Shown: positions 7,579 through 11,695 of the stretch, piece by piece
How positions within the stretch are numbered: position 1 is the first letter of the stretch
How the letters are laid out: every line of letters begins with the position of its first letter
Virus record (IMG/VR): IMGVR_UViG_2675903368_000004
Strand: one strand, 5' to 3'
DNA from: a virus
Taxonomy: Duplodnaviria; Heunggongvirae; Uroviricota; Caudoviricetes
DNA length: 12,577 nt
Position numbers and translations under genes: made by a program
The notes under the pieces: generated by a model
Database searches by the model: none
Told to the model about the DNA's origin: nothing
What the model saw: the letters and a program-made list of their open reading frames with translations, nothing else

Positions 7579-8283
7579 TTAACTGACGGTTACAGTGCAG
7601 GAAGTGGAGGTCACTTTGTTAACCGGGCTCGCTGAATCAGAAATCTCGCAGGTATACGCACCGGCATCACCGGATGCTGCTGATGCCTTACTGAACGTTG
7701 CCGCCGTCTGTCCGGAAACAGGAGAACCACCTTTTTTCCAGGCATAAGAATAAGGCGGCACACCACCCACAGCCTCAACCGCCATTTCAAGTTTCGCTCC
7801 GGAAGCAACCCGCAGCGTGCTTTTTAAATCGACCTTCACTTTCAGCGGCTCTGTCGTCAGCACAGGCTTACCTTTCAGGCGCAGAGAAAACGTTGCAGCC
7901 ACAACACCATTGGTTCCTGCAGACCAGGTATGCTGACGCACCTCTGCCATAAAGGTAAATCCGTTGCCTGACGGAAAAATAACTTTAAAGCCATACGTGG
8001 TGTCATTGTCATAGGCACTGCGCAACGCGTTCTGGGCAGCATTCAGATAAAAGTTGCCTGACATGGAAATCTCTGAAGCAGCCCCAAGACCGTTAATATT
8101 TTCCTGCTCAACAGAACACAGCGTGGTGACATCAATATCCTGCTTTTGTCCTGCGGTAAACTGCACCTCTTTGATTGTACAGCTCAGGCCAAGATAGCTG
8201 GCAGAATCCAGGGTTTCTGCTGTTACCGGTGCAGACGAAATCATAATTTTCGTCAGTTGCGAACGCTCAAAATTAGAGGACAT
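7579..8283 (-). CDS. Major tail (tube) protein with C-terminal Ig-like domain
   Basis: 234-aa ORF, ATG 8283 with AGGAG 7 nt upstream; sits upstream of the G/GT chaperone pair; C-terminal ~95 aa (...GGVPPYSYAWKKGG...AGAYTCEISD...) look like a bacterial Ig-like fold, as on lambda gpV. Confidence 0.85.
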   Translation of the reverse strand: MSSNFERSQLTKIMISSAPVTAETLDSASYLGLSCTIKEVQFTAGQKQDIDVTTLCSVEQENINGLGAASEISMSGNFYLNAAQNALRSAYDNDTTYGFKVIFPSGNGFTFMAEVRQHTWSAGTNGVVAATFSLRLKGKPVLTTEPLKVKVDLKSTLRVASGAKLEMAVEAVGGVPPYSYAWKKGGSPVSGQTAATFSKASAASGDAGAYTCEISDSASPVNKVTSTSCTVTVS

Positions 8284-8296
8284 ACTCGTCTCCTGA

Positions 8297-8322
8297 AAAT
8301 AAAAAAACCCGCCAGCGGCGGG
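8297..8322 (-). terminator. Strong intrinsic-terminator-like hairpin immediately upstream of the major tail gene SD
   Basis: Minus-strand RNA CCCGCC-GCU-GGCGGG (6 G:C pairs) followed by UUUUUUUAUUUU, then CAGGAGACGAGU-AUG of the major tail gene. Confidence 0.55.
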
Positions 8323-8343
8323 TGGGTAAAATCATTAATGACC

Positions 8344-8688
8344 TCAGGCTATTACCTGGAATTCAAGCGTGGCTCTGCTCAGACGGGAGTCAGGATCATA
8401 ACCCTGCGTTTTAGAAATAACGGAGGGTGCCAGTTTTCTTACCGCATCAAGCGCCTGCTCACGAATATTATCTGCGTCATCAGGTACTGTCGCCCAGACA
8501 TCGATCTGCACGGTAATTCTGGATTCAGCCTGCCCATCAAGCACATCAGATACCGTGTCAGACACCACAGAAAACACCAGCCACGGCGGAGATACCGCAG
8601 GCTTTCCCTCCGTCAGCGGGACCACATAAGGATAAACCTGTCCTCCGGCCAGCTGAGACAACAGGGAATACAGTGTGGCCTCCCTCAT
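8344..8688 (-). CDS. Tail terminator / tail completion-like protein (assigned by position and size)
   Basis: 114-aa ORF, ATG overlapping the upstream stop (ATGA); last gene before the major tail gene. No sequence family confidently recognised. Confidence 0.6.
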   Translation of the reverse strand: MREATLYSLLSQLAGGQVYPYVVPLTEGKPAVSPPWLVFSVVSDTVSDVLDGQAESRITVQIDVWATVPDDADNIREQALDAVRKLAPSVISKTQGYDPDSRLSRATLEFQVIA

Positions 8689-11103: not shown

Positions 11104-11695
11104 TTATGCATTAAGAAGGGTCAAAAGACGCTCACGCGCCATTCGTTCGTTAACAGCTTTCTTCAGCGCACCACTCGCCCGCGCTTCCTGCCAGGCTTTC
11201 ATTGAGCGGACACCAGAGTCTGCGTCCTGATAGGCCGGATATGTCACCGGGCTGACGTCATACAGACGAGAAATGCGCGTGATTTCCCGGATAACAATCC
11301 CCTCGTCGTCTTCATACCAGCTCTCTCCGTCACGGGCGACACGAAACGCGAACGAGGACTGATTAATGTCACCACGCAACATTGGAGACAGCACCAGGTC
11401 ACAAATAGTCGGAGTATCCGGTGCAACAATGTCATAACGTAAACCGCGTTCATCCACCGACAATGACAACGTGCCGGCAGAACTTCGTCCGAGAATGAAA
11501 TTAGGATCATGATTAAACAAGCCACGTACATCATCATTCAGTACATCATCAAAAGCCCCCGGCTTGATGATTTCACGAAATCCCCACAGAGGTTCTGAAC
11601 GACTGTTAAATACCGAGCCATACCCCAGAATGTGGGTCGGGGCATTATCATATTGTTCCGCCCGCACCTCCCCGCTGTAACAGCGCGTTTCACGG

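Follow-up and report, generated by a model that had tools for sequence, protein, structure and literature searches.

The GenBank records of the phages HK97 (NC_002167), HK75 (NC_016160) and HK542 (NC_019769) carry 'regulatory: terminator' features within the late operon, at the junction between the tail completion gene and the major tail gene. In HK97 the feature is labelled 'putative' and occupies positions 6692-6719, between gp11 and gp12; its annotation reportedly stems from the HK97/HK022 genome paper published by Juhala and colleagues in 2000. In addition, the three records mark terminators 3' of the capsid gene and 5' of the tape-measure gene. The junction site of HK97, like the one described below, is known from annotation: a search of the literature for the function of the site or for its transcript ends retrieved neither an experimental study of it nor a transcriptome of an HK97-like late operon.

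In phage lambda a single late transcription unit, over 20 kb long, extends downstream of Q, and there are sense-strand GC hairpins followed by a T-run in its intergenic gaps. One of them lies between I and J (15462-15483), another between D and E (6097-6118), just 5' of a high-copy gene, and further sites of this kind follow J and lom. By contrast, the gap between U and V, which corresponds to the junction annotated in HK97, spans 7 nt and has no hairpin. In the late operons of lambda, Q-modified polymerase reads through intrinsic terminators.

Intrinsic terminators that lie in a tail operon and limit read-through in the lysogen are also a feature of morons, such as the gp15 moron of HK97, as these elements carry their own terminators (PMC3594210). 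A comparable design is described for conjugative elements, namely Tn916 and the Gram-positive ICEs with their bipartite antitermination systems: multiple terminators within a long operon keep out transcription that was not programmed, and a processive antiterminator, which is loaded at a single promoter, allows polymerase past them (PMC11658703, PMC8191782). The likeness is an analogy of design only, the elements and their antitermination factors being unrelated to those of the phage. Phage SPP1 was considered as a further analogue, with a hairpin suspected between its genes for tail completion (17) and the tube (17.1), and discarded: the two genes are separated by 13 nt, and the listed terminator (11,255-11,304) follows 17.1*.

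The locus examined here belongs to a stretch of viral DNA of 12,577 nucleotides, referred to as the window. All the genes in the window lie on the minus strand and represent the structural section of the late operon of an HK97-like siphophage, a prophage of E. coli. In a protein search, the major tail protein matches HK97-like lambdoid phages and many prophages. The gene order, the two genes that flank the hairpin and the elements of the gap between them are as follows.

Minus strand, head genes: portal (cut by the window end), protease, major capsid (11089-9872)
Minus strand, neck genes: Ad1 adaptor, head closure (9469-9131), HK97-gp10-like (9134-8685), tail completion (8688-8344)
Minus strand, tail genes: major tail (8283-7579), chaperones G and GT, tape measure, M-, L-, K- and I-like genes, start of J
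8344-8688, minus strand: tail completion gene, Tail_completion_gp17 / DUF3168 (Pfam E 4.8e-11; RefSeq annotation in E. coli genomes)
8324-8343, minus strand: spacer from stop codon to hairpin, 20 nt, C/A-rich and G-poor
8323-8307, minus strand: terminator hairpin ACCCGCC-GCU-GGCGGGU, best site of the scan, present in both the MFE and the centroid fold
8307-8296, minus strand: U-tract T7-A-T4 (T7 8307-8301, A8300, T4 8299-8296), read directly from the sequence
8294-8289, minus strand: Shine-Dalgarno sequence AGGAGA of the major tail gene, 5 nt 5' of the ATG (8283-8281)
7579-8283, minus strand: major tail (tube) gene with a C-terminal Ig-like domain, 72% identity to the HK75 major tail subunit

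The tail completion gene is the last of the neck block. The major tail protein contains an Ig_2 domain and is 38-84% identical to its other relatives; its matches to Pfam tail-tube families are weak. The gap between the two genes measures 60 nt, from the upstream stop codon (8346-8344) to the major tail ATG, and the hairpin begins 20 nt past the stop, outside the translated region and on the transcribed strand. Its stem comprises 7 bp, six of them G-C, formed by A8323-C8317 as the 5' arm and G8313-U8307 as the 3' arm, with the triloop GCU at 8316-8314 and an energy of -12.0 kcal/mol. The first T of the U-tract is at the same time part of the closing pair of the stem, and a single nucleotide, C8295, separates the tract from the Shine-Dalgarno sequence. 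The minus strand, which carries the hairpin, is the coding strand of all window genes. On the plus strand the hairpin is not followed by a T-run, and so the signal is one-directional.

The hairpin ranked first in a consensus terminator scan of the window. Under strict criteria (a stem free of mismatches, 6 bp or longer, with at least five G-C pairs, an energy of -10 kcal/mol or lower and at least six T in the next eight bases) two sites were found in the window, this hairpin and 9851-9834, both of them intergenic and on the coding strand. The chance level estimated from 200 dinucleotide shuffles is a mean of 0.065 sites per window, with any site at all in 4.5% of the shuffles. By its sequence features, the element is a genuine Rho-independent terminator signal, beyond what is expected by chance. 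No Rfam family matched anywhere in the window at gathering thresholds. A sigma-70 scan detected no promoter near 8283-8345 and a total of 7 in the window versus 9.3 expected from shuffles. The 60-nt gap harbours no ORF and no promoter-like site; a moron at this position was considered and rejected, as the extra gene and a promoter of its own are absent. The earlier note, drawn up from the DNA alone, had located the element at 8297-8322, had called it the most canonical intrinsic terminator in the window and had placed it after a head-completion gene and directly 5' of the tail-tube gene. Direct reading confirms the position and the sequence, the scan agrees with the ranking, and the families of the flanking genes (Pfam, identity to HK75) bear out the placement; the late promoter that might have been sought in the gap is not among the sigma-70 predictions.

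In HK97 the families of the flanking genes, the position of the signal and the succession of hairpin, T-run and Shine-Dalgarno sequence are all as in the window. The HK97 stem, GAACCCGCC-AGAU-GGCGGGUUU, is of the same type as that of the window and differs from it in loop and flanks. HK75 is more divergent upstream of the junction than downstream: its upstream protein is 52% identical to that of the window, versus approximately 80% for the N-terminal domain of the major tail protein. HK97 departs from the window in two ways: its major tail gene is directly followed by a terminator, and it has the gp15 moron; the window has neither. Judging from gene context and layout, the window hairpin is the orthologue of the 'putative terminator' between gp11 and gp12 of HK97, a feature that is thus already known. 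Moron terminators are a less close match, as the window hairpin has no adjoining extra gene or promoter and nearly all relatives devoid of a moron possess the hairpin. Given the short U-V gap of lambda, the site before the tail-tube gene is, on this comparison, a companion of the HK97-type major tail family and not of lambdoid phages in general.

The same arrangement recurs along the operon. All four gaps of at least 40 nt in the window share the order hairpin, T-run, Shine-Dalgarno sequence, and the genes directly 3' of the four hairpins are Ad1, major tail, tape measure and J. The three sister signals are the following.

9852-9833, minus strand: terminator-like hairpin between major capsid and Ad1, with the equivalent site marked as a terminator in the records of HK97, HK75 and HK542
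6882-6867, minus strand: terminator-like hairpin between GT and tape measure, directly 5' of the true tape-measure start (ATG 6850)
1274-1253, minus strand: hairpin between the gpI-like and gpJ-like genes, with a weaker T-run, homologous to the hairpin between lambda I and J

The four signals are best explained as punctuation of the late operon into head, neck, tube and chaperones, tape measure and tip, and fibre. A second strong hairpin, GCCCGCACAGUGUUGCGGGC, is found at 9831-9802 on the minus strand, directly 3' of the post-capsid terminator, and abuts the Shine-Dalgarno sequence AGGAG of Ad1; the finder scored a longer stem here at -17.7 kcal/mol. This hairpin could modulate translation of the low-copy Ad1 gene.

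The comparison with related prophages, which the earlier note had suggested, covered loci from bacterial assemblies sampled at one genome per species (71), viral contigs (80) and annotated phages or prophages (8). Of 78 diverse loci, with major tail proteins 35-84% identical to that of the window, 77 have a GC hairpin with a T-run directly 5' of the major tail gene. The hosts include Escherichia, Klebsiella, Serratia, Pectobacterium, Proteus, Providencia and Morganella, as well as Yersinia, Xenorhabdus, Pantoea, Halomonadaceae and Burkholderia; the loci of the last two groups keep the hairpin at a protein identity of 35-40%. The lone exception is a prophage of Xenorhabdus hominickii with a gap of 19 nt. 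Among 80 close relatives the stem is broken in one (L132), and the T-run is T6 or T7. The distance from the end of the stem to the major tail ATG is confined to 17-26 nt, with a median of 21 (73 loci), and almost every relative has a GGAG-type Shine-Dalgarno sequence at this place. Relatives also have a spacer 5' of the hairpin, the total gap measuring 45-66 nt, but its sequence is not conserved.

A stricter detector reported a site within 100 nt 5' of the ATG in 69 of 74 non-identical loci. Elsewhere it returned 121 sites in approximately 454 kb of sense strand (0.027 per 100 nt), and the whole antisense strand yielded 45. Terminators occupy the post-capsid position in approximately 30 and the pre-tape-measure position in approximately 40 of the 74 loci; nowhere in the neighbourhood is a terminator as constant as before the major tail gene. 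The comparison adds to the existing annotation that no other non-coding element of HK97-type tail modules is as conserved as this site, which is kept in hosts ranging from E. coli to Burkholderia.

This conservation concerns structure as much as sequence. Thirteen distinct 5-bp stem cores were observed, for example CCGCC/GGCGG, CCCGC/GCGGG, CCACC/GGUGG, ACCGC/GCGGU and GCUGC/GCAGC. RNAalifold, run on a MAFFT alignment, reported compensatory changes in all five pairs of a 5-bp consensus; as stems of unequal length fall out of register in such an alignment and give rise to many 'broken' cells, an arm-exchange permutation test, applied to each sequence, was used in place of the alignment consensus. 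The cores pair with their own arms at 4.92 of 5 positions, whereas arms swapped among cores pair at 3.09 of 5, and none of 2000 permutations exceeded 4.15. As the 13 cores differ and are all self-complementary, the structure has been kept through compensatory change. In an alignment of 74 sequences, conservation within the gap peaks at the stem-proximal T's, which are invariant or at least 90% conserved. Conservation of both the stem and the proximal T's fits termination itself, not a bare stability hairpin or a U-rich leader. On these comparative grounds, selection acts on the hairpin and the U-tract in combination, in other words on a signal with the shape of a terminator. A short, variable and always self-complementary element of this sort would be a convenient model for why antiterminated operons keep internal terminators. 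In the window and in its relatives alike, the C-rich arm of the stem is nearly always the 5' arm, and the spacer is C/A-rich and nearly free of G.

The two sides of the gap have partly separate histories. Across loci, the identities of the upstream protein and of the N-terminal domain of the major tail protein are loosely correlated (r = 0.53). Two prophages of one strain, Providencia sp. Me31A (L037 and L038), have major tail proteins that are 99% identical and upstream proteins that are 52% identical; their DNA identity starts at the T-run and their hairpin stems differ. The pair looks as if it arose by a recent exchange, the T-run being the breakpoint. In two Proteus prophages the corresponding identities are 99% versus 29%, and identity starts 10 nt 5' of the hairpin. 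When HK75 is set beside a Kosakonia prophage, similarity starts only at the Shine-Dalgarno sequence.

More drastic rearrangements are found at the same place. In prophages of Serratia aquatilis (L052) and Klebsiella spallanzanii (L023) the upstream gene belongs to the lambda gpU family (Phage_tail_U, E 1e-50): the neck-tail junction is a hybrid in which gpU replaces the gp17/DUF3168 type, and the hairpin is kept. In Enterobacter intestinihominis (L024) a complete moron is lodged at the gap, approximately 130-740 nt 5' of the major tail ATG, in the order hairpin, perfect TATAAT, gene for a 176-aa KilA-N domain protein and second hairpin. A Proteus prophage has an additional ORF of 108 aa 5' of the hairpin. 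Where the upstream gene differs, the hairpin thus remains next to the start codon of the tail-tube gene, a further point that the comparison adds.

The gap has also received an insertion sequence. In Serratia phage vB_SspS_OS31, a prophage (L004), the 1437-bp ISSspOS31 of the IS150 group lies in antisense orientation at approximately 1030-2470, having entered the orthologous hairpin at its loop: the loop consists of TCCG, the 4 bp duplicated as the target site. The intact site is found in another locus (L057). The particles induced from OS31 were described as 'devoid of tails' and non-functional, which the authors ascribe to packaging and do not link to the IS (PMC7556043). OS31 might be taken for a functional phage with a disrupted hairpin; it does not qualify as a counter-example, because the particles are tail-less and non-functional (PMC7556043). 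Taken across loci, the discordant identities and the insertions show the gap to be, in terms of sequence history, a recurrent joint and hot spot for module exchange, morons and IS insertion.

The reading that is favoured here, and that appears probable, is that the site is an intrinsic terminator kept inside a Q-antiterminated operon, where it would stop unmodified polymerase and be read through by the Q-modified enzyme. The phages 640R1, which is 99.6% identical in this region, and Evi (97%) encode an 'antitermination protein Q' upstream of the operon, and in both the order is Q, then lysis genes, terminase, head, neck and tail, all on the same strand. The window ends inside the portal gene; Q, qut and pR' lie outside it, and their presence is taken from these near-identical phages, a point that weakens the reading because lambdoid genomes are mosaic.

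The proposed sequence of events would be as follows. Polymerase that does not bear the Q modification would release its transcript at the U-tract; such polymerase might come from stray internal starts, from moron promoters or from leakage past tR' in the lysogen. The tail block would consequently be silent unless Q is made. Polymerase modified by Q and coming from pR' would pass the site, as the operon layout and the biology of lambda suggest, and the tail-tube gene would be expressed. More speculatively, in the read-through mRNA the hairpin may also block 3'-exonucleases and so protect the neck segment, and a U-rich, unstructured leader may be left 5' of the strong Shine-Dalgarno sequence.

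The tail-less particles of OS31 can be placed in this frame. A polar IS insertion before the tail block would also account for them; on that reading the tail genes would have no promoter of their own, and the IS together with the loss of tails is consistent with tail genes that depend on transcription through the junction. Against this stands the attribution by the OS31 authors of tail loss to a packaging defect and not to the IS (PMC7556043). Two further observations fit less easily with Q-dependent silencing. It does not account for the stricter occupancy of this site than of the post-capsid and pre-tape-measure sites, and the persistence of the hairpin by the start of the major tail gene despite upstream gene swaps and insertions would fit a role in major tail expression equally well or better.

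What had made the site puzzling in the earlier note was a strong terminator before a gene needed in high copy. With antitermination by Q, which that note did not take into account, the paradox would disappear, and Q is present upstream on the same strand in a phage 99.6% identical to the window. Nor is the placement special to a high-copy gene, as all four gaps of at least 40 nt have the same layout. A canonical terminator inside a lambdoid late operon is then to be seen as standard punctuation of an antiterminated unit, neither the end of an operon nor a paradox. The hairpin is not confined to this prophage, being found in all but one of the 78 diverse loci, with a broken stem in a single one of the 80 close relatives.

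Foremost among the alternatives, though rather unlikely, is a barrier to mRNA decay: the hairpin would protect the 3' end of the neck segment after endonucleolytic cleavage, and termination would be incidental. It may also block 5'-to-3' scanning by RNase E into the tail-tube cistron and, with the pre-tape-measure hairpin at the other end, would mark off a stable segment of tube and chaperone genes. Hairpins do bracket the high-copy blocks, as one follows the capsid gene and those at 8323-8307 and 6882-6867 flank the major tail and chaperone genes. In HK97 and HK542 terminators are annotated on both sides of the major tail gene, in 15 of 74 loci a short major tail gene is closely followed by a second site, and the hairpin moves with the 5' end of the major tail gene in mosaic relatives. 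Yet a pure block to exonucleases or RNase E has no need of a U-tract, whereas no columns of the gap are more conserved than the proximal T's; every hairpin in the operon has its T-run, and in the window no hairpin follows the major tail gene. The hairpin may contribute as a stable 3' end or stability element, which had been among the options first put forward.

It is unlikely, too, that the site is a dual-purpose cassette in which a terminator is combined with an mRNA insulator, acting with a U-rich enhancer or as an RNase E barrier, and with a short conserved 'linker', formed by the GC stem and T-run, for the exchange of neck and tail modules, morons and IS elements, the whole being selected along with the 5' end of HK97-type tail-tube genes. 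Such a cassette would explain the constant occupancy, the ATG spacing of 17-26 nt and the clustering of homology breakpoints on the hairpin. If it were true, the hairpin and U-tract in the read-through mRNA would set the very high output of tube protein.

Less likely again is a role confined to translation initiation. The hairpin would insulate the ribosome-binding site of the tail-tube gene, and the U-rich tract of 11-12 nt would act as an S1 enhancer or standby site, thereby securing high initiation for a protein present at approximately 200 copies per virion next to low-copy, apparently coupled neck genes. U-rich leaders are S1-dependent enhancers of translation. The fixed distance between stem and ATG across 73 loci agrees with this proposal, as does the persistence of the hairpin by the major tail Shine-Dalgarno sequence where a gpU-type gene, a KilA-N moron or an extra ORF lies upstream. 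Pairing between the 5' flank and the Shine-Dalgarno sequence is, moreover, slightly lower than with shuffled flanks (0.198 vs 0.263, Wilcoxon p = 0.002, 70 loci). However, the same layout precedes the low-copy genes Ad1, tape measure and J in the window, and the post-capsid terminator of HK97 ends 5 nt before gp6, so that the adjacency of T-run and Shine-Dalgarno sequence looks like genome compaction and not like a device for high expression. Lambda V, furthermore, is highly expressed behind its 7-nt gap that has no hairpin.

Other RNA-based proposals were discarded. A structure that sequesters the Shine-Dalgarno sequence or couples the two cistrons is suggested by the MFE fold, in which CCUGAG at the upstream stop codon pairs with UUCAGG at the Shine-Dalgarno sequence, and is at odds with the 70 loci, where pairing falls below that of shuffled flanks. 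An attenuator, riboswitch or leader element finds no Rfam match and no excess pairing with the Shine-Dalgarno sequence, and only 20 nt are available 5' of the hairpin.

Most improbable is a passive scar, left where the terminator of a head/neck block or of a lost moron was joined to the tail block and tolerated only because antitermination by Q makes it harmless. The gap is indeed a mosaic joint: major tail proteins 99% identical stand beside upstream proteins at 52% or 29%, and the point where homology sets in is the T-run, a place 10 nt 5' of the hairpin, or the Shine-Dalgarno sequence. L024 has a KilA-N moron with its own hairpin here, and morons bring their own terminators (PMC3594210). 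But a neutral relic would decay, and the hairpin is found in 77 of 78 loci with 13 self-complementary cores and a conserved T-run, L132 alone of 80 close relatives having a broken stem. The interpretation in the earlier note is thus borne out in part. The module boundary that it had listed among its options is supported by discordant identities, breakpoints and moron or IS insertions; the occupancy and the compensatory stems speak against a passive relic.

A minor observation concerns the tape-measure gene, which is split (window 6850-6635, minus strand). Near 6665 the window has one C fewer than phage Evi, 'ACAGCTAAA' becoming 'ACAGTAAA', and in place of the single longer ORF annotated in Evi it contains one ORF of 70 aa (6850-6638) and another of 1005 aa (6635-3618). 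The split reflects either a defective prophage or a sequencing error.
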